From an uncultured Nannocystaceae bacterium (GTDB lineage Bacteria; Myxococcota_A; Bradymonadia; UBA7976; UBA1532): a stretch of 64,000 bases of DNA. How positions within the stretch are numbered: the stretch's first letter is position 1; every line of letters begins with the position of its first letter. Below are positions 3-46,800 of this stretch, piece by piece. The position numbers were made by a program, and so were the translations under genes. Below the pieces are notes generated by a model, which saw only the letters and a list, made by a program, of their open reading frames with translations, made no database searches and was not told the DNA's origin. Location of the stretch: contig CAYLJJ010000002.1 in the NCBI GenBank assembly GCA_964384025.1, positions 130,189 to 194,188 on the forward strand, read 5' to 3'.

Positions 3-3000
3 CAGCGCGAGGTTAAGGCTTACGCGAACTCAGATCGAGATGGTTGGCGAATACATCCCAGACATCTTACCTGGATCATCCCTCATGTAGCTGTGGGACA
101 ACATCACTTCAAAATCCAAGTGCAGAAGATGTCCACAGGGGTGAGTCAATGCCTCTCTGGCTGGCCCAACGGAGCGACAGCCAATAGCCTCTCGGTGCAA
201 GAGATAGAGCCTGCCTCTTTAGGAATCATCCGTGAGATGGCTTACACCAACAGCACCCCTAATGTTTGGACCGCTCTCCCTGGTCGAGATCTGACTCATA
301 TCAAGGAGGAGGCTGCTACCCAGATCCGCATCAGCTATCTGGATACTTTGGGCACCAACATGCTTACGCGGGGTTGGGGTTGTCGTTGGCGCCTCACTGT
401 CGATGGAGAGGCCCACGGTCGTCCCTTCAACACCTATAACAGCGACGCTACTGGCTGGAGGATGGATCCCAGTCACCTTCAGTGGATCATCAGCGATCTC
501 CCAGCCGGTTCCCACCGTTATCGCATCGAAAATTTGCGCCCTGATAACGGCAGCACCGAATATTGCCGCGCAGGCTGGTCCAGCCCTCAGAATCATCTCT
601 TGGCGGAGGAGATTCACCCTGTTCCGGCAGCTGGAGATGGCGGTGACCCCATCCCCGCGCGCACCCCCAGCCCCGATGTCAGTGGCTATTTTGCAGACAA
701 CCGTCACTCTCCTCTTGATTGGGAGGATCTGCCTGGACGCAGCTTTAGTTTTGAGAAGCAGGCAGAGGATACAACCCTCCGAGTGAACTACGAAGATGTC
801 TTGGGCTATGACATGATCAGCGAAAACCCAGCCTGCGCTTGGCGTCTTCAGGTTGATAACATCAATTATGAACCCTTCGCGGGCTTCTCCAGCTCGGCGC
901 TGGGTTTGCGGCTCTGGCCCAGCAGTCTGGAGTGGTATCTGGAGGGCCTGCGAGCTGGAGTGCATAACTTCCAGATTCAGGTACGTCAACTTCCAGGCGC
1001 AGGACAGTGCCTCGCGGGCTGGATCGAGGGAGAGACGGAGAACTTTATTGAGGTAGAGGAGCTGGACTCTGCTCGCCTCGCGATCACTCAAGGGATGAGC
1101 GAGGAGGTCACCGCATCGACCTCTTGGGTTGATGTCCCTGGCCGCAGCGTGACCTACCAGAAGCAGGATGAGGAGACACACCTTAAGGTCTCCTATATGG
1201 ACAACTTGGGCTACAACATGAAGTCCTCAGGCGTTGGCTGTCACTGGCGCTTGACCATGGATGGGGCGGTGATGCAGCAAGAGGTTAAGACCTATAGCAA
1301 CACCAGCCATGATGGTTGGCGGATCCACCCCAGGCACCTGGTCTGGGTCCTTCCCCATATTGCGATGGGACAACACACCTTCAAACTCCAGATCATCAAG
1401 GCATCGACAGGGGTCAGTCAGTGCCTCACAGGTTGGCCCAGCGGGGGGGTAGGGAACAGCTTTGTGGTCCAAGAGCTTGATGTCGATGAGGCCAGCATCA
1501 TTCGGAATCTCAGTTATCAGCAATCCGCGCCTGATGTATGGACCAACATCACCAGTCGAGATCTAGTTCATGAGAAGCGGGGCGCTCACACTCAGGTGAG
1601 GATCACCTATACGGACACCTTGGGGATTACGATGACGACTCGAGGCTGGGGTTGTCGTTGGCGTCTCACCGTAGATGGAGCGGTGAGGGGGCGCCCCTTC
1701 AACACCTATAACAGCGACGCGACCGGTTGGCGTACAGATCCCAGCTATCTTCAGTGGGTGGTCAATGATCTGGAACCAGGAGAGCACCGCTATAGGATAC
1801 AGCTGCTGCGCCCAGATGCGCAGACAAGCAGCGCCTGTAGAGCAGGGCACGGCTCACCTCACAACTTCCTTTTTGTTGAGGAGGTCAACCCAGAGGTGAT
1901 CGACGACAGCCTCCCCACCGCAGGGCGAGAAGCCAGCACCGAGGTCAGCGACTACGCTCCAGACAGTCGCCTCAGTCCAGGGGCCTGGACTGATCTACCT
2001 GGGCGCCTCTTCCTGTTTAATAAGGCGACAGCTGAGAGCACGCTGCGGGTGAACTATGCAGATGTCCTGGGCTATGACATGCAAGCTGAGGGTCCCGCTT
2101 GTTCCTGGCGTTTGAGCGTCAATGGAGCTGCGACGCGCAGCTTTGGAGGGAACAGTAGTCAAGCCCATGGCCTGCGACTCTGGCCTACAAACCTGGAATG
2201 GTTCCTCAAAGATCTGCCCGCTGGTCCCCTGGAATTCAAGATCCAAGTTCTTAAAGGGGCTGGAGCTACTCAGTGCTTAGCGGGTTGGCAACAAGGTGAT
2301 GCTGAGAACTTTATCGAGGTGGAGGAGTTGGACTCCTACTATGTTGGGGTCACCGAAGAGATGGGGGAGAGCGCAACGGCATCTACAAGCTGGGTAGATG
2401 TACCTGGTAGAGTGCTGGTGTATGAAAAAAAGGAAGATGATAGCGCCATGAAGGTTCATTATATGGATAACCTTGGCTATAATATGTCATCAAGCGGCTG
2501 GGCCTGCAACTGGCGTTTACTTATGGATGATAAAGTCATCCAACAAGAGGCAAAGGCTTATAGTAACACAAGTAAGGATGGATGGCGTACACATCCTAAT
2601 AACCTCTCTTGGTTGATCTTAGACGCGGCCTTGGGAGAGCACACCTTCAAGATCCAAGTCATCAAGGCTTCTACAGGAGTCAGTCAGTGTGTCTCCGGCT
2701 GGCCCAACGCAGAGGTCGCCAACAGCCTCAGCGTTCAGGAGTTCAATGGGGGAGAGATGGCCCTCAAGCGAGAGATGGCTTACACCAACAGTACTCCTAA
2801 CAGCTGGAGCAATCTGCCCTCACGTGACATTGTTCATGATAAACAGGAGGTGGAGAGTCAGATCCGAGTGACCTATACAGATACCCTAGGGACCAGCATG
2901 CTCACTCGGGGTTGGGGCTGCCGTTGGCAGCTCACCGTAGACAATGAGGTCAAGGGTCGTCCCTACAGCAGCTATAACAGCAACGCTACGGGTTGGAGGA

Positions 3001-5684
3001 TGGATCCCAGCCGCCTTCAGTGGATCGTCAACGGTCTGAGCACCGGGGCTCATCAGTATCGTATTCAGCTCGTTCGTCCAGATACACTCACCACCGAATA
3101 CTGTCGTGCAGGCTGGTCCAGCCCTCAAAACTCTCTATTGATCGAGGAGATTGGTCGCGAGGTCCCAGAGCCACCTCCAGGGCTGCCTCCTCGGGTGGCC
3201 AGCGCCGAGGTGAGCGATTACCTCGCCTATACAGAGTTGAGCCCTCAGGACTGGACAGATCTGCCTGGACGAGAGTTTGGCTTTAACAAGAGCTCAGCGG
3301 AGAGCGTCCTGCGCCTTAACTACAGCGACATGTTGGGCTACAACATGAACAGCGAAGGCCCCGCCTGCTCCTGGCGTCTCTTGGTGGACAACACGCCCAC
3401 TCGAACCTTTGGAGGCTTCAGCAGTGAGGCTCGAGGGGTACGGCTCTGGCCCAGCAGCTTAGAATGGCACCTAGAGGGCCTCAGCCAGGGGGCTCATCAG
3501 TTCAAGATCCAGGTCAAGCGAGGTGCAGGGGTCTCTCAGTGCTATGCAGGCTGGTCTGATGGAGAGGCAGAGAACTTCATTGAGGTAGAGGAGCTGGAGG
3601 CCAGCCGTACAGGGATCACGCTGCATATGGGCGAGAACGCAACTAACTCCACAAGCTGGGTGGATCTCCCTGGTCGTACATTAATTCACCATAAACAAGA
3701 GGATCCAACCATTATCAAGGTCTCTTATATGGACAATTTGGGCTATAACATGTCTGCGGCAGGCTGGGCTTGTCACTGGCGTTTGCTCATGGATAATGCC
3801 GTGGTTCAGAAGGAGGCCATGGCCTATGCCAACTCCAGCCATGATGGCTGGAGAACACACCCGCATAATCTATCCTGGGTCATTCCCCATGTTTCTATGG
3901 GACAACATACATTCAAGATTCAAGTTAAGAAGCTCTCTACTGGAGTCAGCCAATGTATATCAGGTTGGCCCGATGGACAGGTGGCCAACGCTCTGGTAGT
4001 TCAAGAGTTTGATGGCAGTGATATCGCCATTCGACAAGATCTTTCCTATGTATCCAGTGCTCCTAACAGTTGGACAAATATCACTAATCGAGACCTAAAC
4101 CATGAGAAGAAGGCTGAAGCAAGCCAGATCCGCGTCACTTATGTAGACAGTCTAGGCGTAGAGATGCTCCTGCGAGGTCAGGGCTGTCGTTGGCAGCTCA
4201 CGGTCGATGATCAGCCCCAGGGTCGCCCCTACAACACCTACAACAGCGAGGCTACAGGTTGGCGCCTGGGCTACGGTAAGATGCAGTGGATCATCAACGG
4301 CTTGAGCGCAGCATCTCACAACTACAAAGTCCGGATGGTTCGCCCCGATGCGAGCCGAACGAACGCGTGTAGGCAGGGCTGGAACACACCCCAGAACTAC
4401 CTTATGGTCGAGGAGATTGGTCATCAACCTCAGGCCCCTGTCCCTCTGCCCGATCGAGGCGCCAGCGCCCAGAACAGCGGAAACTTTCCTGAGAATCAGC
4501 AAAGCTCAAACGCCTGGGAAGATCTCCCAGGGCGTAGCTTTGACTTCAATAAAGCTGGAGCGGCGAGCAATCTGCGGGTGAGCTACTCCGATGTCTTGGG
4601 CTATGACATGATCGGGGAGGCTTCCGCCTGTGCTTGGCGCCTGCTCTTGGATGGTGTTGCTCAAAAGAGCTTTGGGGGCTACTCCAGCAAAGCGAACGGC
4701 CCTCGGCTCTGGCCTACGAAGATGGAGTGGTACTTTGAGGGCTTGGCGGCGGGCGCTCACAACCTGAAGATCCAGCAGCGACGTGATGCTGGAGCGGGGC
4801 GCTGCTTGGCGGGCTGGCCTGATGGAGAAGCGGAGAACTTCATTCAGGTGGAAGAGCTGGCTCCCGACCGCTCGGAGATTGTCCAGGATATGGGAGAGAG
4901 CGCTACAGCCTCCACAAGCTGGGTGGATGTCCCAGGGCGCAGCCTCAGCTATAATAAAGCGGAGGAGCTGAGCCTATTGAAGGTCTCCTACATGGACGAC
5001 CTGGGTTACAATATGAACGCCGCCGGTTGGGCTTGTCACTGGCGTCTGCTTATGGATGGTACTGCCGTGCAGCAGGAGGCCAAAGCCTATGCCAATGCAC
5101 GCAAGGGCTGGCGTACGCATCCCCGAGATCTCAATTGGGTGATCTCCGATGTTCCCTCAGGCCCGCATGACTTTAAGATCCAGGTAAAAAAGATGTCCAC
5201 AGGGGTGAGTCAATGCATCTCGGGATGGCCCAATGGTGGCGTAGCCAACAGCTTCGTGGTTGAGGAGGTCCCAGAGGATTCGCTTACGATCATCCGGGGG
5301 ATGGCCTACACCAACAGCACCCCTAACTCCTGGACCGCTCTCCCCAGCCGCGATCTGAGCCACACCAAGGCGGAAGCCGGCACTCGAATCCGGGTCAGCT
5401 ATATGGACACCATCGGCACCAGCATGCTCAAGCGAGGCTGGGGTTGTCGTTGGCGTCTCAACGTGGATACCCTGCCTCAGGGTCGCATCTACAGCAGCTA
5501 TAACAGTGATGCTACAGGCTGGCGAATGGACCCGACAGAGATGGAGTGGATCATCCCAGGATTGCCTGCCGGAGAGCATCGCTATCGCATCGAATTGCTG
5601 CGTCCAGACAACACCACCACCGAATACTGCCGCGCCGGTTGGTCCAGTCCTCAGAACTTCCTTCTCATCGAAGAGCTGCCCTGA
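3..5684 (+). CDS. 5'-truncated giant secreted or surface repeat protein, built from about 4.4 tandem copies of a 422-aa (A-B-C) supermodule; each roughly 140-aa module carries conserved Trp residues and two Cys; family not recognised
   Basis: The frame-3 reading frame is open from the first bases of the window (QREVKAYANSDRDGWRIHPRHLTWIIPHVAVGQHHFKIQV precedes the track's Met at 93), so the gene starts upstream of the window. The motif G(Q/E)H.FKIQV.K.STGVSQC..GWP recurs at about nt 100, 1370, 2637, 3903 and 5163, giving a period of about 1267 bp. Other repeated motifs are LGYNM..G..C.WRL and GWR.HP..L.W. Confidence 0.75.
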   Translation, partial: QREVKAYANSDRDGWRIHPRHLTWIIPHVAVGQHHFKIQVQKMSTGVSQCLSGWPNGATANSLSVQEIEPASLGIIREMAYTNSTPNVWTALPGRDLTHIKEEAATQIRISYLDTLGTNMLTRGWGCRWRLTVDGEAHGRPFNTYNSDATGWRMDPSHLQWIISDLPAGSHRYRIENLRPDNGSTEYCRAGWSSPQNHLLAEEIHPVPAAGDGGDPIPARTPSPDVSGYFADNRHSPLDWEDLPGRSFSFEKQAEDTTLRVNYEDVLGYDMISENPACAWRLQVDNINYEPFAGFSSSALGLRLWPSSLEWYLEGLRAGVHNFQIQVRQLPGAGQCLAGWIEGETENFIEVEELDSARLAITQGMSEEVTASTSWVDVPGRSVTYQKQDEETHLKVSYMDNLGYNMKSSGVGCHWRLTMDGAVMQQEVKTYSNTSHDGWRIHPRHLVWVLPHIAMGQHTFKLQIIKASTGVSQCLTGWPSGGVGNSFVVQELDVDEASIIRNLSYQQSAPDVWTNITSRDLVHEKRGAHTQVRITYTDTLGITMTTRGWGCRWRLTVDGAVRGRPFNTYNSDATGWRTDPSYLQWVVNDLEPGEHRYRIQLLRPDAQTSSACRAGHGSPHNFLFVEEVNPEVIDDSLPTAGREASTEVSDYAPDSRLSPGAWTDLPGRLFLFNKATAESTLRVNYADVLGYDMQAEGPACSWRLSVNGAATRSFGGNSSQAHGLRLWPTNLEWFLKDLPAGPLEFKIQVLKGAGATQCLAGWQQGDAENFIEVEELDSYYVGVTEEMGESATASTSWVDVPGRVLVYEKKEDDSAMKVHYMDNLGYNMSSSGWACNWRLLMDDKVIQQEAKAYSNTSKDGWRTHPNNLSWLILDAALGEHTFKIQVIKASTGVSQCVSGWPNAEVANSLSVQEFNGGEMALKREMAYTNSTPNSWSNLPSRDIVHDKQEVESQIRVTYTDTLGTSMLTRGWGCRWQLTVDNEVKGRPYSSYNSNATGWRMDPSRLQWIVNGLSTGAHQYRIQLVRPDTLTTEYCRAGWSSPQNSLLIEEIGREVPEPPPGLPPRVASAEVSDYLAYTELSPQDWTDLPGREFGFNKSSAESVLRLNYSDMLGYNMNSEGPACSWRLLVDNTPTRTFGGFSSEARGVRLWPSSLEWHLEGLSQGAHQFKIQVKRGAGVSQCYAGWSDGEAENFIEVEELEASRTGITLHMGENATNSTSWVDLPGRTLIHHKQEDPTIIKVSYMDNLGYNMSAAGWACHWRLLMDNAVVQKEAMAYANSSHDGWRTHPHNLSWVIPHVSMGQHTFKIQVKKLSTGVSQCISGWPDGQVANALVVQEFDGSDIAIRQDLSYVSSAPNSWTNITNRDLNHEKKAEASQIRVTYVDSLGVEMLLRGQGCRWQLTVDDQPQGRPYNTYNSEATGWRLGYGKMQWIINGLSAASHNYKVRMVRPDASRTNACRQGWNTPQNYLMVEEIGHQPQAPVPLPDRGASAQNSGNFPENQQSSNAWEDLPGRSFDFNKAGAASNLRVSYSDVLGYDMIGEASACAWRLLLDGVAQKSFGGYSSKANGPRLWPTKMEWYFEGLAAGAHNLKIQQRRDAGAGRCLAGWPDGEAENFIQVEELAPDRSEIVQDMGESATASTSWVDVPGRSLSYNKAEELSLLKVSYMDDLGYNMNAAGWACHWRLLMDGTAVQQEAKAYANARKGWRTHPRDLNWVISDVPSGPHDFKIQVKKMSTGVSQCISGWPNGGVANSFVVEEVPEDSLTIIRGMAYTNSTPNSWTALPSRDLSHTKAEAGTRIRVSYMDTIGTSMLKRGWGCRWRLNVDTLPQGRIYSSYNSDATGWRMDPTEMEWIIPGLPAGEHRYRIELLRPDNTTTEYCRAGWSSPQNFLLIEELP
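3..5684 (+). repeat. Intragenic tandem DNA repeat, period about 1.27 kb, about 4.4 copies; the first and last copies are nearly identical over about 30 nt
   Basis: 'aagatgtccacaggggtgagtcaatgc' is present at about nt 125 and again at about nt 5190; intermediate copies are diverged. Confidence 0.7.
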
Positions 5685-5735: not shown

Positions 5736-6362
5736 ATGCAGGACCCCATCATCCTTGGCCCGAGAGCCATCCAAGCGATCAGCGGCGCAGTTGATGAGCT
5801 GCTGCCCTGGTTGGCGCGCTCCAAATATCGAATCAGGGAGGATGGCGCCCTGGAGTTTCAGGAGCCTGAGCCCGCTGAAGCCCTGCTCAACCTCCAACGG
5901 TATGTAGAGGGCGCGCTGCCGGGAGAGATCTTAGAGCAGATTGGGAGCCGCAGCGGCTTGGGCTGGCCTAAGTTCTTTGGACAGGTGGTCAGCTTCTGGT
6001 TGCCCCAACGCCGCTACCTGGGTTTTCTACGTGCCCTCACAGATCGAGCTGCGCTCCATCAGATCCAGCTCAAGCTGCACTGGAATCTAGGTCGCCAAGT
6101 TCCGGTGCAGTATCGTAAACCAGGGCAGGATGCTCTGCTCTGGGGAGGCGGCGCGGGCCTCGTGGGCGCTTTCCTGGTCACCCGAATTTGGCGGGGAGAG
6201 CCGATAGCCGCGCTCCTGGCTCTGGCCGCTGGCTTGGTGGCCGGGCGCATCTATCAGCGGGCAGCACGCCTGCGAATCTGTGGAGACTCTCTCTGTCGAG
6301 CGCCCGCAGGTCGCGCCAATAGCTGCCCATCTTGTGGGGCTGATCTTCGGAAACCTGGATGA
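5736..6362 (+). CDS. Hypothetical protein with one predicted TM segment and a C-terminal CxxC...CPSC zinc-ribbon-like motif; first gene of a translationally coupled operon
   Basis: The ORF has an RBS (GGAGAATATG). A hydrophobic stretch LVGAFLV...ALLALAAGLVAG is present, and the protein ends ICGDSLCRAPAGRANSCPSCGADL. Its stop overlaps the mutY start (ATGA). Confidence 0.5.
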   Translation: MQDPIILGPRAIQAISGAVDELLPWLARSKYRIREDGALEFQEPEPAEALLNLQRYVEGALPGEILEQIGSRSGLGWPKFFGQVVSFWLPQRRYLGFLRALTDRAALHQIQLKLHWNLGRQVPVQYRKPGQDALLWGGGAGLVGAFLVTRIWRGEPIAALLALAAGLVAGRIYQRAARLRICGDSLCRAPAGRANSCPSCGADLRKPG

Positions 6363-7411
6363 GCTCCCTACGCGCCGCGCTCCTAACCTGGTATGAGCGT
6401 CACCGCCGCGCGTTGCCCTGGCGAGAGCGACCCAGCCCTTGGCGAGTCTGGGTCTCTGAGATCATGCTTCAACAGACCCGCAGCGCCTCAGTGATCCCCT
6501 ATTTTGAGCGTTTTCTGGCGCGCTTCCCCGATCCTGAGAGCCTCGCCCTGGCCCCGCAAGATGAGCTGTTGGGGCTCTGGGCTGGCCTGGGCTACTACGC
6601 CCGCGCTCGCAACCTCCAGAAGGCGGCGAGACAGGTGATAGCGCGACATGGAGGGGTGGTTCCTAACGATCCTGAAGCTTTTAGAGCCTTAGCTGGAGTA
6701 GGGGAGTACAGCTGTGGAGCGGTGATGTCCATCGCCTTTGGCCTAGAGACCCCCATCCTGGACGGGAACGTCGTCCGGCTCCTCTGCCGCCTCCATCGTA
6801 TCGCTGAAGATCCCCGTAAGGCGGCGACGCGCAAGCGGCTCTGGGGGCTCTCAGCGGCTCTGGTGAAGGGTGAGCGGCCAGGAGATCTCAACCAAGCTTT
6901 GATGGAGATGGGCGCTCAGATCTGTACTCCTCGGGCACCGCGCTGCTTACTCTGCCCTATTCGTGAGCATTGCCAAGCCCTCGCTGCGGGAGAGACAGAT
7001 GTTCTCCCCCTTAAAGCAACCCCTAAGCCTCGCCTGCTGATCAAGCGGGTGGCCGCGCTCCTTCAGACGAGGGTGGGTCTCTGCTTGGGCCGTCGCCCTG
7101 AAGAGGGGATGTTGGGGGGGCTTTGGGAACTGCCCGCTCTAGAGGCTGAGAGCGCCGAGGCCTTGAAGCGCCTAGGATTAGAACCTGGAGCCCTGCTCGC
7201 TCAGGTGGAGCATCGCTTCACACATCGAATCTGGAAGACTCAGATCTTTCGTGCTCAGGGAGAGATCCAAGCTCAGGCGCTGAGCTACACTCGCCTTGAG
7301 TTTCTCCCTGAGGAGCGGCTGCCCAGCTTGGGGCTCAGCGGTCCCAGCCTTAAGGCCCTAAGAGCCTGTGGCTTTAAAATCCCCCATCGAAGAGGGGCAG
7401 GGCCTCGATGA
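6359..7411 (+). CDS. mutY: A/G-specific adenine DNA glycosylase MutY: HhH-GPD domain with a 4Fe-4S cluster loop, plus a C-terminal NUDIX-like domain
   Basis: WYERHRRALPWRE...PW.VW.SEIMLQQT, LGYYARARNL, VGEYSCGAV, and the Cys cluster CTPRAPRCLLCPIREHC. Confidence 0.9.
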   Translation: MSSLRAALLTWYERHRRALPWRERPSPWRVWVSEIMLQQTRSASVIPYFERFLARFPDPESLALAPQDELLGLWAGLGYYARARNLQKAARQVIARHGGVVPNDPEAFRALAGVGEYSCGAVMSIAFGLETPILDGNVVRLLCRLHRIAEDPRKAATRKRLWGLSAALVKGERPGDLNQALMEMGAQICTPRAPRCLLCPIREHCQALAAGETDVLPLKATPKPRLLIKRVAALLQTRVGLCLGRRPEEGMLGGLWELPALEAESAEALKRLGLEPGALLAQVEHRFTHRIWKTQIFRAQGEIQAQALSYTRLEFLPEERLPSLGLSGPSLKALRACGFKIPHRRGAGPR

Positions 7412-8823
7412 ACTCCTCTGCACAGCGCCACCCCATCAGCGTCAGCGAGCTGAGCCGCCGTATCCGCCTGCTCCTAGAGCAGCAAGGCCCTGTCTGGGTC
7501 GAGGGGGAGTTGGGGCAGATCAGCCCTCAACAGAGCGGGCATGTTTATCTGAGCCTTAAAGATCAAGAAGCGCGCATCAGCGCTGTGGTCTGGCGCAATG
7601 TCCGTTCCAAATTGCGCTATGAGCCGGGAGAGGGCAGCCGGGTCCTCATCTATGGCCGCCTGAGCGTTTATGCTCCTAAGGGGGGCTATCAGCTGGTGGT
7701 GGAGCATATCGAGCCTGCCGGTCAGGGGGCGATGCAGCAAGCTTTTGAAGCGCTCAAAGCGCGCCTAGCGGCTGAAGGTTTCTTTGCTCAGGAGCGTAAG
7801 CGCCGCCTCCCGCTCCTGCCTCGCCGGGTAGGAGTGATCACCAGCCCTACCAGCGCTGCACGGCGAGATATTGAGGCGGTCCTCCACCGCCGCTCTCCTC
7901 AGATCCCAATTTTGCTCTACCCCGCCTTGGTGCAGGGGGAACAGGCTGCCGCTGATCTCGTCGCAGGGCTCTGGGCTTTGAGTCAGGCTCCTGGGATCGA
8001 CTTGATCATCCTGGCGCGTGGCGGAGGCAGCGCAGAGTCGCTCTGGGCTTTCAATGATGAGCGCTTGGCTCGCAGTATCGCTGCCTGCCCGCTCCCAGTA
8101 ATCACGGGGGTGGGTCATGAGACCGACATCACCATCGCAGATCTCGTCGCAGATCTGCGGGCTGCGACCCCCTCTGAGGCGGCGGAGAAGGCGGTCCCAG
8201 TGCGCCAGAAGCTGTTTCAGGATCTCGACCTGCTCTGGCAGCGTATGGAGCAGGCTCTCTTTACGCGGATGCAGCGAGCCCGACAGCTCTTGCTGCTCCT
8301 ACAGCGCCGCGCCAGCCTGGATCTGGGCCTGGATCATCGCCGCCTGCATCTCAGCCGCCTCTCTCGGCGCTTGGAGGGAGAGAGCTTCGCTCAAATCCGC
8401 CGTCGACGGCTGCAGCTTGAGGCCCTGGCTCAGCGCTTGAGGGAGCGAGATCCTGCCCGCGCCCTGGGTCAGGCGAGGCTGCGCCTGGAGAGCGCACGGG
8501 CACGCCTGCTTCTCCTGGGCCCAGGGCTCTGTCTCTTGGGGCGTCGTCGCCTTGAGCACTACAGCGAGCGCTTGGAGCGAGCGACTCAGACACTCTTGAA
8601 CCGACGACGAAGCGCCTTGGCTCAGCTCCTGGGACCTCTCCGAGCGCTCTCCCCTCTGGCCAGCTTAGAGCGCGGCTACAGCATCACCTTGGGTCCAAAG
8701 GGTGCTGTGACTGAGGCTGAGAGCTTGAGCGCGGGTGACACCGTCCAGATTCGCCTCTATCATGGGCAACTTGAGGCGGTGGTGACCGCCATCCGTCCCC
8801 CTGAGCATCAGGAGAAAGCTTGA
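7408..8823 (+). CDS. xseA: Exodeoxyribonuclease VII large subunit
   Basis: N-terminal OB fold (VWVEGELGQIS...SGHVYLSLKD), then the catalytic region GVITSPTSAARRDI, ILARGGGS and ITGVGHETD. There is a 4-nt overlap with both mutY and xseB. Confidence 0.9.
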   Translation: MNSSAQRHPISVSELSRRIRLLLEQQGPVWVEGELGQISPQQSGHVYLSLKDQEARISAVVWRNVRSKLRYEPGEGSRVLIYGRLSVYAPKGGYQLVVEHIEPAGQGAMQQAFEALKARLAAEGFFAQERKRRLPLLPRRVGVITSPTSAARRDIEAVLHRRSPQIPILLYPALVQGEQAAADLVAGLWALSQAPGIDLIILARGGGSAESLWAFNDERLARSIAACPLPVITGVGHETDITIADLVADLRAATPSEAAEKAVPVRQKLFQDLDLLWQRMEQALFTRMQRARQLLLLLQRRASLDLGLDHRRLHLSRLSRRLEGESFAQIRRRRLQLEALAQRLRERDPARALGQARLRLESARARLLLLGPGLCLLGRRRLEHYSERLERATQTLLNRRRSALAQLLGPLRALSPLASLERGYSITLGPKGAVTEAESLSAGDTVQIRLYHGQLEAVVTAIRPPEHQEKA

Positions 8824-11164: not shown

Positions 11165-11914
11165 ATGCGCTCTATCCCTCTTATCTGCATCGCCAACGCG
11201 CTGCTTCTATCGCTACTCCCTCTTAGGGCTCAGGCAGCCTCTTTTGAAGAGAGCCGTGATCAAGGCACCCTCTATTTCAAGAAGGGGCACTTCAAGCTGG
11301 CTAAGCTCAAGTTAGACGGTGCGTATCGAACCCCTCAGGGAAAGCAGGACTTTCGCACGCTCTATTATCGAGGGCGCAGCGCTCAAAAACTGCTCCTCTT
11401 GGAGACCGCCTTTGAGATGGCCAAAGCGGCGGGTAAGCTCCCTGAGCTGAGCAAAAAAATGAAGTCTAAACTCTTAGAATTTCAAGGTGAACTCGACGAT
11501 TTCTATGGCCCTGTCTATATCAAGCCAGCCAAGGGAGAGACCAACAGTAAAGGGCGCATCTTTCTAGAGTCTAAGACGGGGATCATCAACCGCCAGAAGA
11601 AACGGGTCTTTCTCTCTATTCGAGAGCGCTTTCGCGCTCTGGAGGTCAGCCTGCCTCTGCGTATCTATCTGCCCTATGGGGACTATCTGGCCAACAACAT
11701 TCCCTTCACCATCGCTCGTGGTGAAAAGGAGCCTGTGGTCAATGCCTTCCTACAGATCATTGTTGTCCCCAAGGAGAGCAAGCTCTGGTGGTATGTGGGG
11801 ATCGGCGGCGCCACCGCTGTTGCCGCTGGCTTGGGCGCTTTTCTACTCCTCAATCAAGATGATGCAAAAGTTGAAGATCGACTTATACCCAGGCTCCCGC
11901 AGGAGGAAAGATGA
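11165..11914 (+). CDS. Hypothetical secreted protein with an N-terminal signal peptide and a C-terminal TM anchor
   Basis: MRSIPLICIANALLLSLLPLRAQA signal; C-terminal WWYVGIGGATAVAAGLGAFLLL; stop overlaps the next gene's start. Confidence 0.5.
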   Translation: MRSIPLICIANALLLSLLPLRAQAASFEESRDQGTLYFKKGHFKLAKLKLDGAYRTPQGKQDFRTLYYRGRSAQKLLLLETAFEMAKAAGKLPELSKKMKSKLLEFQGELDDFYGPVYIKPAKGETNSKGRIFLESKTGIINRQKKRVFLSIRERFRALEVSLPLRIYLPYGDYLANNIPFTIARGEKEPVVNAFLQIIVVPKESKLWWYVGIGGATAVAAGLGAFLLLNQDDAKVEDRLIPRLPQEER

Positions 11915-14900
11915 TGATAAAGAGATCTCCAAAGTTCCTCTTGCTGCTCTCAGGTCTGCTCCCCTTAAGCGCCTGTGATGAGAGCGTTAAGTATGAAGAT
12001 CGAACACTGAACATCAGTCTGAACGCTTGTTTGGGAGATAGAGAAGCCTCTGAAGAGGGCCTCGCCAGCACCTGCCGAACACGCTTGGATCAGCGCGTGG
12101 CCGCCTCTGAGAGCAACGCCTGTTTGCTGATCAGAAGGACAGAGGAGGGCAGCGAAGTGCACCCTCTACCGCTGCGCTGGCAAGAGGGTCGGATGTCCTT
12201 CTTGGAGCAGGGTGAGCTGCCCCTGGCTGTAGGCCAGGAGATCGAGGCGGAGCTTTACCTCTTCAGCGCTGAGGAGGAGGCGGGGAGTTGCACCAGGGGC
12301 TTGGCCTTTGGAAGCGCTTGTGAGACCACGACAGGCTGCCTACTCAAGCTGATCCAAACGCCCAGTTCCATCGGAGAGAAGGGCCTTGAGTTTGACTTTG
12401 GAGGCGATAGTGGAGCTTGCCGTACCGAAGGCCCTCTGGACTCTGAGGAGGAGGCGGAGATCTGCGATGGCGCTGACAATGACTGTGATGGAGAGATCGA
12501 TGAGGGTGAGCCAGGTGCCGGTGAAGCTTGTGACAGCGGCGCCTTGGGCATCTGTCAACCTGGGATTCAGACCTGCGTAGAGGGCACGATCCGCTGTGAC
12601 AGCCTGAGCGGACCTGAGCAGGAGATCTGTGGAGATGGCTTGGATAATGATTGTGATGGAGAGCTGGATGAGGAGATCGGCTGGCGACCCAACCCTGAGG
12701 CGGAGACCATCTTCATCGGCCAGCCCTGTGAGCAGGGGCAGGGGCTTTGCCGAGCCTCTGGAACGGTGGTCTGCAACCCAGAAAATCCAAGAGAGGGGCT
12801 CTGTGATGCTCAGCCAGGAGAGGCTGATGTGGAGATCTGTGACGCCCTAGACAATGACTGTGATGGAGAGACTGATGAGGGCTTTGAGTTGGGGATGCCC
12901 TGTACCGTGGGGCAGGGAGAGTGTCGTCGAGAGGGGCTGAGCATCTGTGAAAACGGGGGGATGGGTTGTAATGCTCAGAGCGGAGAGATGAGCCCAGAGA
13001 TCTGCGATGGGAAGGACAATGATTGTGATGGTCTAGAAGATGAAGATTTCCCAGAGCTTTCTCAAAGCTGTTCGCTGGGTGTAGGTGCCTGTCTTCGTGA
13101 GGGGACCTTTGCCTGCAGAGCCGACAATCTGGGGAGTGAATGTAACGCCCGGACTGGATCTCCTGCCCAGGAGATCTGCGGAGATGAGCTGGACAATGAC
13201 TGTGATGGGGAGACTGACGAGGACTTCCGGGAGTTGGGGCAAGCTTGTGAAGTGGGTATCGGTGAGTGTAAGCGCCATGGGGTACGGATCTGTGACCCCA
13301 ACCTCCTCACCCGGATGCGTTGTAGCGTTGACGCTGCAGAACCGGGCGTGGATGACAACTGTGATGGCTTAGATGATGACTGTGATGAGGAGCTTGATGA
13401 GCACTATGAGTCCAGCACAGTTGAGTGTGGCGAGGGAGCTTGTGGCGCTGTCGGTCAGCTGATCTGTCGAGGGGGAGAGGAGCAGAGCACCTGTCGAAGT
13501 GGAGAACCCGCAGAAGATGACGCCAACTGTGATGATATCGATGATGATTGTGATGGAGAGCTGAACGAAGATTGGATCATCCTACCTACCGCCTGTGGTG
13601 TGGGCGCCTGTGCTGCTGCTGGGCGCTTGGTCTGTGTTCGAGGAGAGACTCGGGACACCTGCCAGGAGGGAGAGCCTGCTGTTGACGATTCAAACTGTGA
13701 TGGCCGAGATGATGACTGTAATGGTGAAGTGGACGAGGAGTTCCAGGGCCAGGCGACAGAGTGTGGGGTGGGGGCCTGCTGGGCCACAGGGCATACACGC
13801 TGTGAAGAAGCTCAGATTTTAGACAGCTGCCAACCTGAGGAGCCCGCCGTTGATGACGCCACTTGCGACCTCATCGATGACGACTGCGATGGAGATATGA
13901 ATGAGGATTGGGAGATTTTACCAACGCAGTGCGGCATCCAGGCCTGCGCTTCTACGGGAAGCTTGATCTGCGTTCAGGGCGAAGTTCAAGACACATGTCA
14001 TCCTCGAGAGCCTGCCGCTGATGACGCCAACTGCGATGGTGTTGATGATGATTGCGACGAGATATTTGATGAAGATTTCCTGAGCCAGGCGACGAGCTGT
14101 GGTGTGGGCGCCTGCGCCGCCACCGGCCGTACAGAGTGCTGCCATACAGAAGAGTGTGGTGGTGCGCAGATCATAGACACCTGCACAGCTGAAGAGCCCA
14201 TCAGCGCTGATGATGCTACCTGTGACGCCATCGACGATAACTGTAATGGCAACTTTGATGAGGACTTCTCCAGTCAGGAGACAGAGTGTGGGCGGGGAGA
14301 GTGTCATGCTCAGGGCCTCACCTTCTGTGTACAGGGGGTGGTACAGGACAGCTGTGTACCTGAGCACCCCGCTGCTGATGACGCCAGCTGTGATGGTCGC
14401 GATGATGACTGCGATGGGGAGTTTGACGAAGACTTCTTAAGCCAAGAGACCCGCTGTGGTGTGGGCGCCTGTGCTGCGACAGGCCAAACCGAGTGTATCG
14501 ACGCGCAGATCATAGACAGCTGCGTTCCGGGAGAGCCTGCTCTTGACGATGTGACCTGTGATGCCATCGACGATAACTGCAATGGCAGCTTTGATGAGGG
14601 CTTCTCGAGCCAGGAGACGGAGTGTGGGCGGGGAGAGTGTCATGCTCTGGGCCGCACCTTCTGTGTCCAGGGTGAGGTGCAAGACAGCTGCGCACCCAGG
14701 CTCCCTGCCGAGGGGGACGCCAGCTGCGACGGTCGAGATGATGATTGTGATGGCAGCTTTGATGAAGACTTTCTTGGCAACGCCACCGAGTGTGGCGTGG
14801 GCGCTTGTGCAGCGGGGGGGCAGATCCTCTGTGTTGAAGGGAGACTCCAAGACAGCTGCACACCGAGGCCGCCTGCCGCCGATGATGTCAGCTGTGATGG

Positions 14901-17796
14901 CGTCGATGATGATTGTGATGCATTGATCGACGAGGATTTTCAGCGGGTGGTTGTCCAATGTGGTGAGGGATCCTGTGGAGACTCAGGAGAGACCATCTGT
15001 ATCAACGGCCAGGAGGAGGACACTTGCGCGCCAGGGACTCCTGCGCTCAATGACGCCAGCTGCGACGGTGTTGACGATGACTGTGATGGAGTGACGGATG
15101 AGGATTACCTCCCACAGGAGACTCAATGCGGCGTTGGTGCTTGCGCCTCTACAGGCTTGCTGAGCTGCGTCAATGGCGCTGAGCAGGACAGCTGTATCGC
15201 TGGAGATCCTGCTCCAGACGACGCCAGTTGTGATGGTGTAGATGATGATTGTGATGGCCGCTTCGATGAGAACTACCGCTCTTTGGAGACCCAGTGCGGC
15301 CAGGGAGAATGTCTGTCTCAAGGTCGTACCTTCTGTATCCAGGGGGTGGTGGAGGACAGCTGTGAAGAGGGGCAGGTGGCCCCCAACGATCCTACTTGCG
15401 ATGGTCGGGATGATGACTGTGATGGCCGCTTCGATGAGGACTATATCAGACAGGAGCCTCAGTGTGGGATTGGCGCCTGCGTCAGCACAGGGCGTACACG
15501 TTGCCAAGGTGGCCGTATCCTAGACTCCTGCCGACCTCTTCATCCTGCGGACGATGACGCCACCTGCGACAACATCGATGATGACTGTGACGGGATCCGC
15601 GACGAGAACTTCCTCTTTCAGGAGACAGAATGTGGTCGAGGAGAGTGTCTCGCCCAGGGCCGCACCTTCTGCGTCCAGGGGGTCTTGACCGACAGCTGTG
15701 TGCCTGGAGAGCCCGCCGGTGATGATCCCAGCTGTGATGGTCGAGATGATGACTGCGATGGAGAGGATGATGAAGATTATCTGAGCCAGGGCACCGAGTG
15801 TGGTGTGGGTGACTGCTTCGCTGAGGGGGTCACTCTCTGTGTCGCTGGAGAGATCCAAGACAGCTGTACGCCTGGGGATCCCGCCAATGATGATGCCACC
15901 TGTGATGGTATCGATGATGACTGCGATGCGCTCACAGATGAGGATTTTGTTCGTGAGCCGGTGGTCTGCGGTGAGGGCTCCTGTGGAGACTCGGGAGAGA
16001 CCATCTGCATTAACGGTGGGGAAGAGAACACCTGCGCACCGGGAGAAGCCGCTGGGGATGATGCCACCTGCGATGGTGTCGATGATGATTGTGATGGGGT
16101 GACCGATGAGGACTATACCCCACAACGAACTCAGTGTGGTGTAGGGATCTGCGTCTCTACCGGATGGCTGAGCTGTGTTGGTGGCGTAGAGCAGGACAGC
16201 TGCGTTACTGGAGATCCCGCGATTAATGATGCCAATTGCAACACTGTAGATGATGATTGTAATGGTGAAGTTGATGAAGACTATCCAGTTGAAGCAACCA
16301 GCTGTGGTGTTGGCCCTTGTGCGGCTGTTGGATTATTGACCTGTGATAATGGTGCAATCACCGATTCCTGCACTCCAGGAGTTCCTGCTAATAGTGATGC
16401 CAGCTGTAATGGAAACGATGACAATTGCAATGGGGCTGTAGATGAGGAGTACCTTGGCGAAGAGACCGTTTGTGGTATTGGTGAGTGTATAAGAACGGGC
16501 CGGATTTTTTGTGTTAATGGGAGCGAACAAGATTCTTGTGTAGAAGGAATTCCAGGGAACGATAATAATTGCGATGGACGCGATAATGATTGTGATGGAG
16601 AGATTGATGAACATTATCTCGTCCAGCAAACAGAGTGCGGTATAGGCCCCTGTATTTCTCAAGGACATACGCGCTGTGTAAATGGAACAGTTGAAGATGA
16701 TTGTATCCCTGGAGTGCCGCCAGGAGAAGACACGAACTGTGATAATATAGACAATGACTGCGATGGTACTGTTGATGATGATTATGTTCGAGTCGTCATC
16801 GAATGTGGTGAAGGATCTTGTGGAGAGGCTGGAGAAATAATATGTGTCAATGGACAGGAATACAACACATGTCAGCCAGGAGAGCCTGCTGCCGATGACA
16901 GCACATGTGATGGGATTGACGATGACTGTGACGGGGAGACAGACGAAGACTATGTAAGACAGAACACATCATGTGGAATTGGTCTATGTGTCTCTCAAGG
17001 GACTCTGAAATGCGTAAATGGCGCAGAGCATGACAGCTGTGTTCCTGGTAATGGGGCTGTAGATGATTCAACCTGCGATGATATTGATGATGACTGTGAT
17101 GGGCAAAGCGATGAAGAGTACTCCCCTCCAGTGACAAACTGTGGTGTAGGAGCCTGCGCCGCACAGGGCCTCCTCAATTGTCAGAATGGAGTTGAAGTAG
17201 ATACTTGCAGTCCGGGCGTGGCGGGAGACGAACTCTGTGGAAACCTATCGGATGATGATTGTGATGGAGAGGTAGATGAGGGTTTCCCCAATCTGGAGCA
17301 GGACTGCATTGTGGGTCAGGGAGAGTGTGAAGAGGCAGGGATCTTGGTCTGTACCGCAGATGGTCTCAACACCACCTGTAGCGTGAGCCCTACCGAGCCC
17401 CAAAATGAGATCTGCGATGGTTTGGACAATGACTGTGATGGGGATGTGGATGAAGAAAACCCAGGCGGTGGCGCACCCTGTAGCATGGGGGAGCAAGGGG
17501 TCTGCGACACTGGGCTGATTGAGTGTATTGGCGGAGCTCCCGCCTGTGTTCAAATCCAGGGAGCTGAAGCGGAGATCTGCGATGGTTTGGACAATGATTG
17601 CGATGGGGATACGGATGAAGAGCTGGGGCAGAGCACCTGTGGTCTGGGGATCTGTGAGAACACTGTAGATAATTGTCTATTGGGAGAGGAGCAGCTCTGT
17701 GAGCCCTTAGATCTCGCTGTCGCTGAGATCTGTGATGATGGATTGGATAATAACTGTGACGGTGATGTAGACGCAGCGGACGCTGGCTGCCCCTAA
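11911..17796 (+). CDS. Giant (1961 aa) lipoprotein composed of about 40 tandem MopE-like putative metal-binding repeats (C.G.G.C...G...C..G...D.C.PGEPA.DD..CDG.DDDCDG..DED)
   Basis: RBS GAGGAGG; lipoprotein signal LLSGLLPLSAC; (E/A)ICDG.DNDCDGE.DE or CDG.DDDCDG..DED motifs recur about every 45-50 aa through the whole protein. Confidence 0.8.
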   Translation: MMIKRSPKFLLLLSGLLPLSACDESVKYEDRTLNISLNACLGDREASEEGLASTCRTRLDQRVAASESNACLLIRRTEEGSEVHPLPLRWQEGRMSFLEQGELPLAVGQEIEAELYLFSAEEEAGSCTRGLAFGSACETTTGCLLKLIQTPSSIGEKGLEFDFGGDSGACRTEGPLDSEEEAEICDGADNDCDGEIDEGEPGAGEACDSGALGICQPGIQTCVEGTIRCDSLSGPEQEICGDGLDNDCDGELDEEIGWRPNPEAETIFIGQPCEQGQGLCRASGTVVCNPENPREGLCDAQPGEADVEICDALDNDCDGETDEGFELGMPCTVGQGECRREGLSICENGGMGCNAQSGEMSPEICDGKDNDCDGLEDEDFPELSQSCSLGVGACLREGTFACRADNLGSECNARTGSPAQEICGDELDNDCDGETDEDFRELGQACEVGIGECKRHGVRICDPNLLTRMRCSVDAAEPGVDDNCDGLDDDCDEELDEHYESSTVECGEGACGAVGQLICRGGEEQSTCRSGEPAEDDANCDDIDDDCDGELNEDWIILPTACGVGACAAAGRLVCVRGETRDTCQEGEPAVDDSNCDGRDDDCNGEVDEEFQGQATECGVGACWATGHTRCEEAQILDSCQPEEPAVDDATCDLIDDDCDGDMNEDWEILPTQCGIQACASTGSLICVQGEVQDTCHPREPAADDANCDGVDDDCDEIFDEDFLSQATSCGVGACAATGRTECCHTEECGGAQIIDTCTAEEPISADDATCDAIDDNCNGNFDEDFSSQETECGRGECHAQGLTFCVQGVVQDSCVPEHPAADDASCDGRDDDCDGEFDEDFLSQETRCGVGACAATGQTECIDAQIIDSCVPGEPALDDVTCDAIDDNCNGSFDEGFSSQETECGRGECHALGRTFCVQGEVQDSCAPRLPAEGDASCDGRDDDCDGSFDEDFLGNATECGVGACAAGGQILCVEGRLQDSCTPRPPAADDVSCDGVDDDCDALIDEDFQRVVVQCGEGSCGDSGETICINGQEEDTCAPGTPALNDASCDGVDDDCDGVTDEDYLPQETQCGVGACASTGLLSCVNGAEQDSCIAGDPAPDDASCDGVDDDCDGRFDENYRSLETQCGQGECLSQGRTFCIQGVVEDSCEEGQVAPNDPTCDGRDDDCDGRFDEDYIRQEPQCGIGACVSTGRTRCQGGRILDSCRPLHPADDDATCDNIDDDCDGIRDENFLFQETECGRGECLAQGRTFCVQGVLTDSCVPGEPAGDDPSCDGRDDDCDGEDDEDYLSQGTECGVGDCFAEGVTLCVAGEIQDSCTPGDPANDDATCDGIDDDCDALTDEDFVREPVVCGEGSCGDSGETICINGGEENTCAPGEAAGDDATCDGVDDDCDGVTDEDYTPQRTQCGVGICVSTGWLSCVGGVEQDSCVTGDPAINDANCNTVDDDCNGEVDEDYPVEATSCGVGPCAAVGLLTCDNGAITDSCTPGVPANSDASCNGNDDNCNGAVDEEYLGEETVCGIGECIRTGRIFCVNGSEQDSCVEGIPGNDNNCDGRDNDCDGEIDEHYLVQQTECGIGPCISQGHTRCVNGTVEDDCIPGVPPGEDTNCDNIDNDCDGTVDDDYVRVVIECGEGSCGEAGEIICVNGQEYNTCQPGEPAADDSTCDGIDDDCDGETDEDYVRQNTSCGIGLCVSQGTLKCVNGAEHDSCVPGNGAVDDSTCDDIDDDCDGQSDEEYSPPVTNCGVGACAAQGLLNCQNGVEVDTCSPGVAGDELCGNLSDDDCDGEVDEGFPNLEQDCIVGQGECEEAGILVCTADGLNTTCSVSPTEPQNEICDGLDNDCDGDVDEENPGGGAPCSMGEQGVCDTGLIECIGGAPACVQIQGAEAEICDGLDNDCDGDTDEELGQSTCGLGICENTVDNCLLGEEQLCEPLDLAVAEICDDGLDNNCDGDVDAADAGCP
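12420..17760 (+). repeat. Intragenic tandem repeat array (about 135-150 bp units, about 40 copies) encoding the MopE-like repeats
   Basis: Periodic gatgatgactgtgatgg / gacaatgactgtgatgg DNA motifs. Confidence 0.7.
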
Positions 17797-40350: not shown

Positions 40351-40619
40351 CTTTACCTCCCCAGCGGTGCTCATCTCACCGCTTAAGTTTGGGCGAACCT
40401 AAACTCCGACTATACGGGGTAAACAGATCTCTGCAACAGTGGAGTTGGCCGGTCGGAGGCTACCGAATTTGATGATTGAATCATTTTCAAGGTTTACGCC
40501 CGCTCACCGCTCCGGCAATAACGTGAGTCTCATGACTGATTTTCATGACATTAGAAACCGCTAAGGTCTTGGAAGGAAGGTCTCAATTAGATTCTCCTTG
40601 GCGGCTATGTGACGAGTAG

Positions 40620-45293: not shown

Positions 45294-45399
45294 TCAAGCT
45301 CCTCCACTTACTCTGAGATGCAGAAACATACGTTCCCCTTCGTTTCAGATCCACCGCTCTTGTGTTGACGGCTCCTCAGCCCCGATCCACACTGACCTC

Positions 45400-46800
45400 A
45401 TGCCAAAGAAGTTTCCAGATTTTGTCCCCCTCACCCAGATCGCCTACCAGGAGGGCGCGGGGACGACCCTTCACCTGAGGAGGTGTCGTCTAGCGGTGGA
45501 GCAGGAGGGTCTGTGGCAGGAGAAGATCTTTGATCAGGCAACAGTCACTGTAGGCACCATGGAGGAGAATGATCTGATAATCCTTGATGATACGGTGAGC
45601 CGCTTTCACTGTCGGATCTATCAAGAACGCAACTCCTATGTTATCCAAGATTTGGGGAGCACCAACGGGACCTTCATCAACCGAGTGCGCATCAAAGAGG
45701 CCTATCTAGAGCCAGGCTGTAATATCCACCTTGGGAAGACCCACCTTCAGTTTCAAAGCCTGGATGAGCAGGTCCAGATCAAGCCCATCAACGAAGATCG
45801 TTTTGGGGAGATCATCGGAGCCAATGTCAAGATGCGCGAGATCTTTGGCATTCTAGAGAAGATCTCACCCACCGACACTACTGTGGTGATTGAAGGAGAG
45901 ACCGGCACAGGCAAGGAGGTGGTGGCTCATACCATCCATGCTCGCTCCAAGCGCAGCGCTCAGCCCTTTATCATCTTTGACTGCTCCGCTGTCCCCGCGA
46001 GCCTCTTGGAGTCAGAACTCTTTGGTCATGAGAAGGGCTCCTTCACCGGCGCAGTCGTGACCCGCCCAGGGCTCTTTGAGATGGCCAATGGGGGGACCAT
46101 CTTTCTAGATGAGATGGGAGAGCTGAGCCTAGAACTCCAACCCAAGCTTCTTCGTGTCTTGGAGACCCGTGAGGTGCGTAGGGTGGGCGCAACTCGCTCA
46201 ATGCGGGTCGATGTACGCATCATCGCGGCCACCAATCGCCGTCTAGAGCAGGAGGTCCGCGCGGGACGTTTCCGAGAGGATCTCTATTACCGCCTAAGCG
46301 TGGTGCGCATCTTCCTGCCCCCACTCAAGGAGCGCCCTGAAGATATCCAACTCTTGATCCATCACTTCTTGGCGAGAGGCCGCTTTAACCAGAGGGAGGA
46401 TGGAAGCCGACGCATCAAGGGGATCGAGCGTGGCGCTCTAGAGGCGCTCCTTGGCTACCACTGGCCAGGAAACGTGCGAGAGCTGCTCAACGCCGTGGAG
46501 CGTGCGTGTAGCTTTGCAGAGAGTGAGATGATCCGAATTGAAGATCTCCCGAGCCACTTTATGAACGCTGGGACTCGGAGACCTCGACTCAGCGCTCCTC
46601 CGCCTCTCCCTTCCAGTGAGGAGTTGGGCACCTTTAAGGAGTCTAAGGAGAAGTTGGTCTCAGCCTTTGAGCGAGAATACATCAAGAGCCTCCTCCAGCT
46701 GCACAACTTCAACATCAGCCAAGCTGCTCGAGAGGCACAGATCGACCGAAAATATTTCCGAAAGTTGATGAAGAAGTACAACATCGAGGCCCAACCTTGA
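45400..46800 (+). CDS. Sigma-54-dependent transcriptional activator with an N-terminal FHA domain (FHA - AAA+ sigma54-interaction domain - Fis-type HTH)
   Basis: FHA: VSRFHCRIYQERNSYVIQDLGSTNGTFIN. AAA+: GETGTGKEVVAHTIH (Walker A), ESELFGHEKGSFTGA (GAFTGA motif), FLDEMGEL. C-terminal HTH. The start is set to the first ATG after the convergent gene, at 45400. Confidence 0.85.
   Translation: MPKKFPDFVPLTQIAYQEGAGTTLHLRRCRLAVEQEGLWQEKIFDQATVTVGTMEENDLIILDDTVSRFHCRIYQERNSYVIQDLGSTNGTFINRVRIKEAYLEPGCNIHLGKTHLQFQSLDEQVQIKPINEDRFGEIIGANVKMREIFGILEKISPTDTTVVIEGETGTGKEVVAHTIHARSKRSAQPFIIFDCSAVPASLLESELFGHEKGSFTGAVVTRPGLFEMANGGTIFLDEMGELSLELQPKLLRVLETREVRRVGATRSMRVDVRIIAATNRRLEQEVRAGRFREDLYYRLSVVRIFLPPLKERPEDIQLLIHHFLARGRFNQREDGSRRIKGIERGALEALLGYHWPGNVRELLNAVERACSFAESEMIRIEDLPSHFMNAGTRRPRLSAPPPLPSSEELGTFKESKEKLVSAFEREYIKSLLQLHNFNISQAAREAQIDRKYFRKLMKKYNIEAQP

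Follow-up and report, generated by a model that had tools for sequence, protein, structure and literature searches.

Tandem triplets of divergent CTHRC1_C-like jelly rolls in a giant bacterial protein are predicted to form single-chain trimeric heads

The stretch of DNA analysed here (the window, 64,000 nucleotides (nt) of contig CAYLJJ010000002.1 from an uncultured Nannocystaceae bacterium) begins inside a giant gene, which is read as one unbroken open frame from nt 3 to the stop codon at 5682-5684 on the forward strand. Coordinates without a contig label are positions in this 64-kb window, and those preceded by L002, L003 or L004 follow the numbering of the contig so labelled. The initial annotation had described the frame as a giant repeat protein continuing upstream of the window. 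This is the case, as the full protein (P0002) has 2451 amino acids (aa) and 15 modules; the window contains its distal four-fifths, the 5' 558 codons lie upstream, and the whole gene is found at L002 10001-17356. The identical 2451-aa product is encoded on four metagenomic contigs, including JGI 3300007510 and ENA ERZ23498660 scaffold_63, and the two contigs examined among these come from independent assemblies. The features of the gene within the window are as follows, with "head" denoting a predicted structural unit and inter-head linkers given as the gaps between hidden Markov model (HMM) domains:

3-5684, forward strand: C-terminal 1893 codons and stop of the 2451-aa, putatively secreted multi-head protein P0002 (open frame, exact match to P0002)
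3-194, forward strand: incomplete type-C module comprising the last 63 aa of domain 2 in head 1 (hmmsearch domain 1, HMM positions 75-136)
195-647, forward strand: type-A module (third domain of head 1) with its Pro-rich linker
606-656, forward strand: inter-head linker 1, Pro/Gly-rich, HPVPAAGDGGDPIPARTPSP
648-1913, forward strand: head 2 (B 648-1052, C 1053-1466, A 1467-1913)
1881-1922, forward strand: inter-head linker 2
1914-3179, forward strand: head 3, the unit modelled with AlphaFold2 (AF2) (B 1914-2318, C 2319-2732, A 2733-3179)
3147-3191, forward strand: inter-head linker 3, REVPEPPPGLPPR
3180-4442, forward strand: head 4 (B 3180-3584, C 3585-3998, A 3999-4442)
4413-4451, forward strand: inter-head linker 4, HQPQAPVPLPDR
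4443-5681, forward strand: head 5, which closes the protein (B 4443-4847, C 4848-5258, A 5259-5681)

Comparing the translation of the window with itself yields 36% identity at an offset of 422 aa versus about 11-13% at unrelated offsets, and this period fits 4.49 times into the window. Anchoring on the C-x-W-[RQ]-L motif, which recurs at spacings of 149/135/138 aa, delimits 13 full modules and one partial module of three types, namely A (~149 aa), B (135 aa) and C (138 aa). Protein identity amounts to 48-70% between modules of the same type and to 23-37% across types. Invariant or near-invariant positions include W25, R31, K37, Y48, D50, G53, M56, C63, W65, L67, G88, R90, W98, C124 and G127. 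The 422-aa supermodule of the form (A-B-C)n with at least 4.4 copies, as proposed in the initial annotation, is therefore borne out, and the motifs quoted for it are real, since they fall on these conserved alignment columns. The annotation missed the register. In P0002, the first domain past the stalk and the Gly-rich hinge is of type B and the last one before the stop is of type A; the actual repeat unit is therefore B-C-A, present in five copies. Relative to the HMM boundaries, all ten within-unit junctions measure 2 residues, and the four between-unit linkers are Pro-rich and span 14-17 residues. The domain array stops within 3 residues of the stop codon.

We are highly confident that the module is a divergent CTHRC1_C/C1q-TNF-like jelly roll, both in domain identity and in fold. 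Aligning the profile of the window modules with a profile of bona fide CTHRC1_C domains only, hhalign reports 99.3% and an E-value of 3.5e-20 over 112 columns, and the two invariant cysteines of the module align with those of the bona fide domains. The module had been considered not assignable to a known family; this profile-profile match assigns it to CTHRC1_C (PF25815). On the whole protein, the PF25815 model accumulates a summed score of 29.6-31.1 bits versus a gathering score of 27, with no single stretch reaching the threshold, and no single module reaches any Pfam threshold. An exhaustive HMMER search with the 13-module profile recovered 355 cluster representatives; 19 of the 132 members scanned individually pass CTHRC1_C (best E 1.4e-65), and example family members reach E 8e-77 on PF25815. 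From the four near-invariant cysteines of typical CTHRC1_C members, the module retains only those of C-x-W and C-x-x-G-W. It lacks the "DGxxC" and "GxC" cysteines as well as the NDH motif and thus represents a divergent CTHRC1_C subfamily. A structure model built from the type-C module at 3585-3998 predicts a jelly-roll beta-sandwich that is superposable on C1q/TNF protomers. The earlier guess of a beta-sandwich or lectin-like fold was correct.

Other searches with the module were negative or led to candidates that we rejected. Pfam C1q (PF00386) and TNF (PF00229) gave no match at E <= 1 with the whole protein or at E <= 0.1 with single modules, and searches of PDB sequences returned nothing meaningful, whether started from one sequence or from a profile. 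For MtxA_IG-like (PF22433), the 54 bits are the sum of partial matches covering profile positions 45-74 of 83, none of which passes alone and which fall on the G-x-H-x-Y/F-x-I-Q hairpin; a Pfam match to DPC2 was dismissed as partial or sub-threshold. When one supermodule served as query, a word-indexed protein search retrieved no protein at all and missed P0002 itself, which is a cluster representative. The same tool also missed the query's own protein for an M18 aminopeptidase, a housekeeping enzyme whose best named relatives are Myxococcota, Bradymonadia, Tectomicrobia and Planctomycetota MAGs (50-57% identity), so that its negatives are unreliable here.

The N-terminal 350 residues of P0002, which lie upstream of the window, consist of a putative signal peptide, a conserved domain, G-X-Y triplets, tail-fibre-like repeats and a hinge. 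The domain after the putative signal peptide is common to many relatives and is followed by GPQGAVGPEGEQGPAGN and then by three repeats. Altogether, the stalk contains five or six collagen-like G-X-Y triplets and three "VDGxGSGxDxDRLDGxDS" repeats, with the Gly-rich hinge after it. The three repeats match phage tail-fibre PHROGs (E 2e-11 and 3.5e-8), and the heads have no PHROG match.

A comparison across the family reveals a rule of three. With a more diverse HMM, complete-looking members contain 1 (51 proteins), 3 (26), 15 (1) or 21 (1) domains, and none has 4-14; nine domains are present in the full-length protist-like CTHRC1_C protein P0273. Eleven proteins appeared to have two domains, of which six turn out to have an additional, diverged domain at the front (E ~1e-3 to 1e-17), four come from truncated calls and one is ambiguous. 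This restriction to one domain or a multiple of three is as firmly established as the repeat anatomy, the homology, the single-domain fold and the linker pattern. The median junction in 31 three-domain relatives is 2 residues, and triplets occur among bona fide CTHRC1_C proteins too. In several relatives the three domains are mutually closer than they are to domains of other proteins (P0004 62/61/48%, P0006 56/58/74%, P0071 60/66/68%), and therefore triplets arose or were homogenised more than once. Among the relatives, the domain is invariably found at the protein end, an arrangement shared with C1q, BclA and fibre tips; Pfam Collagen repeats are found in 15 of 132, and others carry Laminin_G_3, CBM60 or CBM96. 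No relative came up when genomes, metagenomes and viral contigs were scanned, for which the alignments were too diverse to design patterns.

Two relatives allow insights into how the giant protein was built, the first of them encoded next to it:

L002 4070-6415: paralogue of 781 aa, located 3.6 kb upstream of the giant gene, which shares the stalk of the giant and has a single B-C-A unit

This paralogue aligns collinearly with the first 763 residues of the giant (58% identity) and has the same B-C-A order, which is also kept in P0003. The giant therefore corresponds to the three-domain form plus four more units. The second relative, the 3301-aa homologue P0151 with its 21 domains, has units 1, 2 and 3 in common with the giant; its unit 7 matches unit 4 of the 2451-aa protein at 71-77% identity, unit 3 was recently copied to give three versions (72-82% identity), and a counterpart of unit 5 (head 5) is missing. 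It follows that gains and losses concern whole B-C-A units. For the almost unannotated CTHRC1_C-like superfamily of bacteria and protist-like sequences, we lean towards the view that natural single-chain trimers are a recurrent design, in which the domain occurs either once per chain, as a classical homotrimer, or in threes folding as one heterotrimer-like head, with the head as the unit of duplication.

C1q/TNF domains work as trimers, and both of their termini lie at the same end, the base of the trimer. For this reason, the unit was tested for folding on itself, and AF2 was run on 1914-3179 with a 22-sequence alignment of triplets. The B-C-A unit is predicted with a predicted local distance difference test score (pLDDT) of 90.7 and a predicted template modelling score (pTM) of 0.90; all five models have a pLDDT of at least 89, above that of the single-domain model. 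The predicted structure is a threefold trimer assembly. In a Foldseek search, it reaches template modelling (TM) scores of 0.59-0.60 to 5hzf and 5hkj and of 0.52-0.55 to 4zch, and all other chains score at most 0.26. Based on this model and on the family comparison, which is independent of AF2, it is quite likely that each B-C-A unit forms an intramolecular, single-chain trimer. The period of three would then be due to the triplet being such a trimer.

Alternatively, three whole chains could join via the stalk, with equivalent domains forming successive B3, C3 and A3 layers along the fibre, as known from phage tail fibres. Such stacked homotrimers would fit the G-X-Y triplets and tail-fibre-like repeats of the stalk, and single-domain relatives on collagen stalks presumably make ordinary homotrimers. 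We nevertheless consider this arrangement unlikely: because both termini lie at the trimer base and the B-C and C-A junctions have only 2 residues, three successive homotrimeric layers cannot be threaded. Besides, it offers no reason for domain numbers of 1, 3, 9, 15 or 21, leaves the duplication of whole triplets unexplained and is at odds with the compact AF2 model of the single chain.

The 15 domains might also not pack together at all and instead form an adhesive array of independent beads, comparable to Ig or cadherin adhesins, with the three module types as an accident of duplication. Giant repeat adhesins are common, other giant repeat proteins are encoded in the same window, and in a mollusc protein with three gC1q domains each domain binds on its own when expressed separately (PMC5519582). 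However, a 2-residue junction provides no spacer for independent jelly rolls, and counts of one or a multiple of three are found across distant branches, independent triplications included. Together with the high pTM and the good superposition of the whole unit on single-chain trimers, this makes independent beads quite improbable.

Several points weigh against the single-chain trimer and the assignments connected with it. The trimer is an AF2 single-chain prediction, and AF2, which was trained on TNF/C1q trimers and given no partner chains, might for this reason put together any three domains of this kind. The interfaces of the B-C-A unit are predicted, and a disulfide between the CxWRL and QCxxGW cysteines is presumed. 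The collagen-like and tail-fibre-like stalk suggests three-chain association, so that inter-chain arrangements are conceivable. Across distant relatives, domains 1, 2 and 3 show weak orthology by position, which was not used as support. As for the domain itself, CTHRC1_C is missed by every single module (best 15.4 bits, E 0.023, versus 27 bits), all relatives are annotated as "hypothetical", and the putative Sec signal peptide at the N-terminus, MLRFLLLIALACIWIPQTASA|LP..., was recognised only by eye.

On balance, we regard it as probable that P0002 is a Sec-exported fibre or adhesin of this marine bacterium, composed of a stalk and five single-chain pseudo-trimeric heads that are probably glycan-binding; export is inferred from the N-terminal sequence. 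In the proposed mechanism, the B-C-A unit would fold on itself into a pseudo-threefold head, as C1q, adiponectin and TNF ligands do with three chains. With about 30% identity left between the three module positions, any head would be obligate heterotrimer-like with three non-equivalent inter-domain grooves. These grooves may be the counterpart of the sites where TNF-like lectins bind sugars, so that each head would offer three different ones. Placed on flexible Pro-rich tethers along the stalk, the five heads would form a flexible string, which may serve, at the surface or after secretion, as a multivalent adhesin or lectin. In the nearest relatives of known structure, the sites that contact glycans or cell surfaces are grooves between protomers (PMC12914763, PMC10769870). 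PLTL and BC2L-CN bind fucosylated glycans (PMC12914763), Bd2439 binds N-acetylglucosamine and Bd2734 is a prey-handling fibre tip (PMC10769870). An adhesion or lectin role is the most likely one because of these glycan- or cell-binding relatives and the fusion of other relatives to LamG, CBM60 and CBM96; taken by itself, this putative role has about an even chance of being right.

C1q/TNF-fold proteins are a textbook case of function via three-chain assembly, and to our knowledge single-chain (sc) versions of this fold exist only as engineered reagents (scTNF, scTRAIL, sc-adiponectin, scC1q). The engineered trimers, i.e. the scC1q head (5hzf, 5hkj), sc-adiponectin (4dou), sc-APRIL-BAFF-BAFF (4zch) and Cbln1 x3 (5kca), resemble the B-C-A unit in having three jelly rolls per chain with very short connections, and scC1q is likewise a heterotrimer of three diverged subunits. 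In contrast to the B-C-A unit, which would be natural and is repeated five times per chain, they are artificial fusions of three-chain assemblies, and sequence identity to them is 6-12%. In the literature searched, we found no description of natural single-chain C1q/TNF pseudo-trimers or 3n arrays.

Among natural proteins, CTHRC1_C domains are homologous C1q-like jelly rolls that share the conserved Cys pair and the C-terminal position, often after a collagen-like stretch. They differ from the single modules of the window, which stay below the Pfam threshold and have neither the extra Cys pair nor the NDH motif. Animal CTHRC1 has one domain and trimerises via 12 G-X-Y repeats, whereas the giant has 15 domains in five triplets; with only 5-6 G-X-Y triplets and extra tail-fibre-like repeats it departs from the metazoan architecture. 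In the model of Leclere et al. (2020), CTHRC1-C is C1q-like; the authors also list homologues from bacterial metagenomes, dinoflagellates and choanoflagellates, with no mention of tandem triplets (PMC7058181). Bacterial TNF/C1q-like tips comprise Bdellovibrio MAT Bd2734 and Bd2439 (PMC10769870), Photorhabdus PLTL and Burkholderia BC2L-CN (PMC12914763), Bacillus BclA and Chlamydia Pgp3. They present a C-terminal tip on a fibre or collagen-like stalk and have adhesion or glycan-binding roles with sites between protomers. As in Bdellovibrio MAT or BclA-like fibres, the giant has an elongated N-terminal stalk and tip domains at the chain end. However, those tips are built from three chains with one domain each, compared to 15 domains per chain in triplets, and their sequence similarity to the giant is undetectable. 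The mollusc protein HcC1qDC6 also has three tandem gC1q domains in one secreted chain and a pattern-recognition role, but it is eukaryotic, belongs to Pfam C1q and not CTHRC1_C, and forms no higher-order 3n array; its description proposes no intramolecular trimer, the word "trimer" being absent from the text (PMC5519582). The domain family, its fold, bacterial CTHRC1-C homologues and mollusc tandem gC1q triplets without structural interpretation are thus known already.

If the single-chain trimer holds true, the giant would be a natural counterpart of engineered scTNF and scC1q, in a five-headed form with three non-equivalent binding grooves per head. It would illustrate the evolution of asymmetric single-chain bodies from symmetric oligomers, and would offer natural linker and interface solutions to protein engineers. 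In addition, it would put the annotation of hundreds of "hypothetical" metagenomic proteins on a structural basis, protist CTHRC1-like ones included. The data also connect CTHRC1, a signalling protein of animals, with a far larger family of microbial domains.

Immediately downstream of the giant gene, both contigs carry one further open reading frame (ORF):

5736-6362, forward strand: 208-aa ORF without family match

It encodes two hydrophobic segments and a C-terminal CxxxxC...CxxC (Cys4) zinc-ribbon-like motif, and may or may not belong with the giant gene. Past it lie mutY, xseA, xseB and a TlyA-like methyltransferase gene, and the locus is therefore chromosomal and not a prophage. Following the 781-aa paralogue, L002 6417-9935 encodes a protein of 1172 aa, in which a Cys-rich domain (DUF7107) and a weak galactose-binding-like match were detected. 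A homologous locus is present at L003 1-9560 (scaffold_93, same ENA sample) and L004 1136-5654 (JGI 3300009008), with a three-gene block for a 782-aa 3-domain protein, a ~1174-aa protein and the 3301-aa giant. The 781-aa paralogue, the 1172-aa protein and the giant show synteny between the two loci and may cooperate. The region upstream on the window's own contig differs from the homologous locus and contains a Ser/Thr kinase gene and small ORFs. In the homologous locus, the block is located ~2.5 kb downstream of Phage_T4_gp19, a 1448-aa ORF, CIS_tube/GpU/LysM and Phage_GPD genes, and in L003 an EF-G-like gene lies between these genes and the block.

This proximity, along with the tail-fibre-like stalk repeats, raises the idea that the 3-module protein, the ~1170-aa protein and the giant are target-recognition fibres of a phage-tail-like particle, i.e. 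of a contractile injection system (CIS), which we consider very improbable and keep as a mere lead, as no CIS gene is found within 10 kb upstream on the window's contig or in the 58 kb downstream, the EF-G-like gene separates the CIS genes from the block in L003, the scan of viral contigs found no relative, PHROG matches to the heads are absent, and an N-terminal Sec-type signal peptide would be unexpected for a particle assembled in the cytoplasm.

Finally, the initial annotation had reported near-identical DNA between distant copies and had taken an identical 27-nt stretch as a sign of recent gene conversion or recombination. Two exact repeats are relevant here:

126-152, forward strand: 27-nt stretch encoding KMSTGVSQC, identical to 5190-5216
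1641-1668, forward strand: 28-nt stretch encoding RGWGCRWRL, the longest exact repeat in the gene, identical to 5433-5460

The 27-nt identity does exist, but the copy pair carrying it (m0-m12) is otherwise 70% identical in DNA, and other copy pairs share exact runs as well, of 28, 26 and 24 nt. DNA identity lies at 57-70% for every one of the 26 same-type pairs, far from near-identical, and the fraction of identical codons at identical residues is 0.38-0.55 versus the 0.40 that codon usage by itself would give. Saturation of synonymous sites is thus nearly complete, which means that the copies are old. In a family-wise codon-shuffle permutation, which keeps the amino-acid pattern of each copy pair, a longest run of at least 28 nt is not exceptional (P=0.17); the three runs of at least 26 nt are together mildly unusual (P(2nd >= 27) = 0.03, P(3rd >= 26) = 0.0075). 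Tandem Repeats Finder reported no repeat in the gene, because the copies are too diverged. At most, a few micro-patches are shared between copies. The suggested copy-number variation is seen between homologous loci (15 versus 21 modules, in whole triplets), and the gene itself has an identical 15-module product on four contigs. A copy-number mis-assembly is unlikely as well, since the copies are so diverged and the same product is found on these four contigs.

There is accordingly very little chance that the gene is a contingency locus prone to recombination, partly homogenised by recent gene conversion and unstable in copy number: the three 26-28-nt runs in non-adjacent copies, jointly slightly above the codon-shuffled expectation, and the three recently duplicated triplets of P0151 are outweighed by the low DNA identity of same-type pairs, synonymous codon identity near its floor, the non-significant longest run and the identical product on four contigs, two of them shown to come from independent assemblies. 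The module is a known domain with essentially ordinary divergence between copies, the outcome that the initial annotation had itself named as speaking against its idea; the repeat is now explained, and the gene-conversion idea is set aside.

Besides the giant gene, the window is unusually rich in giant secreted-looking proteins. A 1961-aa protein (11911-17796, forward strand) contains at least eight MopE-type putative metal-binding repeats (Pfam E 1e-55), and a 3191-aa protein (30799-40374, reverse strand) has bacterial thrombospondin type-3 repeats and is adjoined by a 1424-aa ORF (41019-45293, reverse strand) without Pfam match. An 826-aa ORF with a reverse-transcriptase domain (57185-59665, reverse strand) gives weak, sub-threshold matches to group II intron reverse transcriptase, Drt3a and retron reverse transcriptase models, and could be a defence-type or otherwise unusual reverse transcriptase. 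The ARAGORN call of a tRNA-Ser(GGA) at 8457-8548 (forward strand) lies inside the xseA coding region (7408-8823) and is probably a false positive. Regulatory genes include an FHA-domain sigma-54 activator (45073-46800, forward strand) and an ECF sigma factor with its zf-HC2 anti-sigma partner (51679-53102, reverse strand), a regulatory style that is common in Myxococcota-like genomes.

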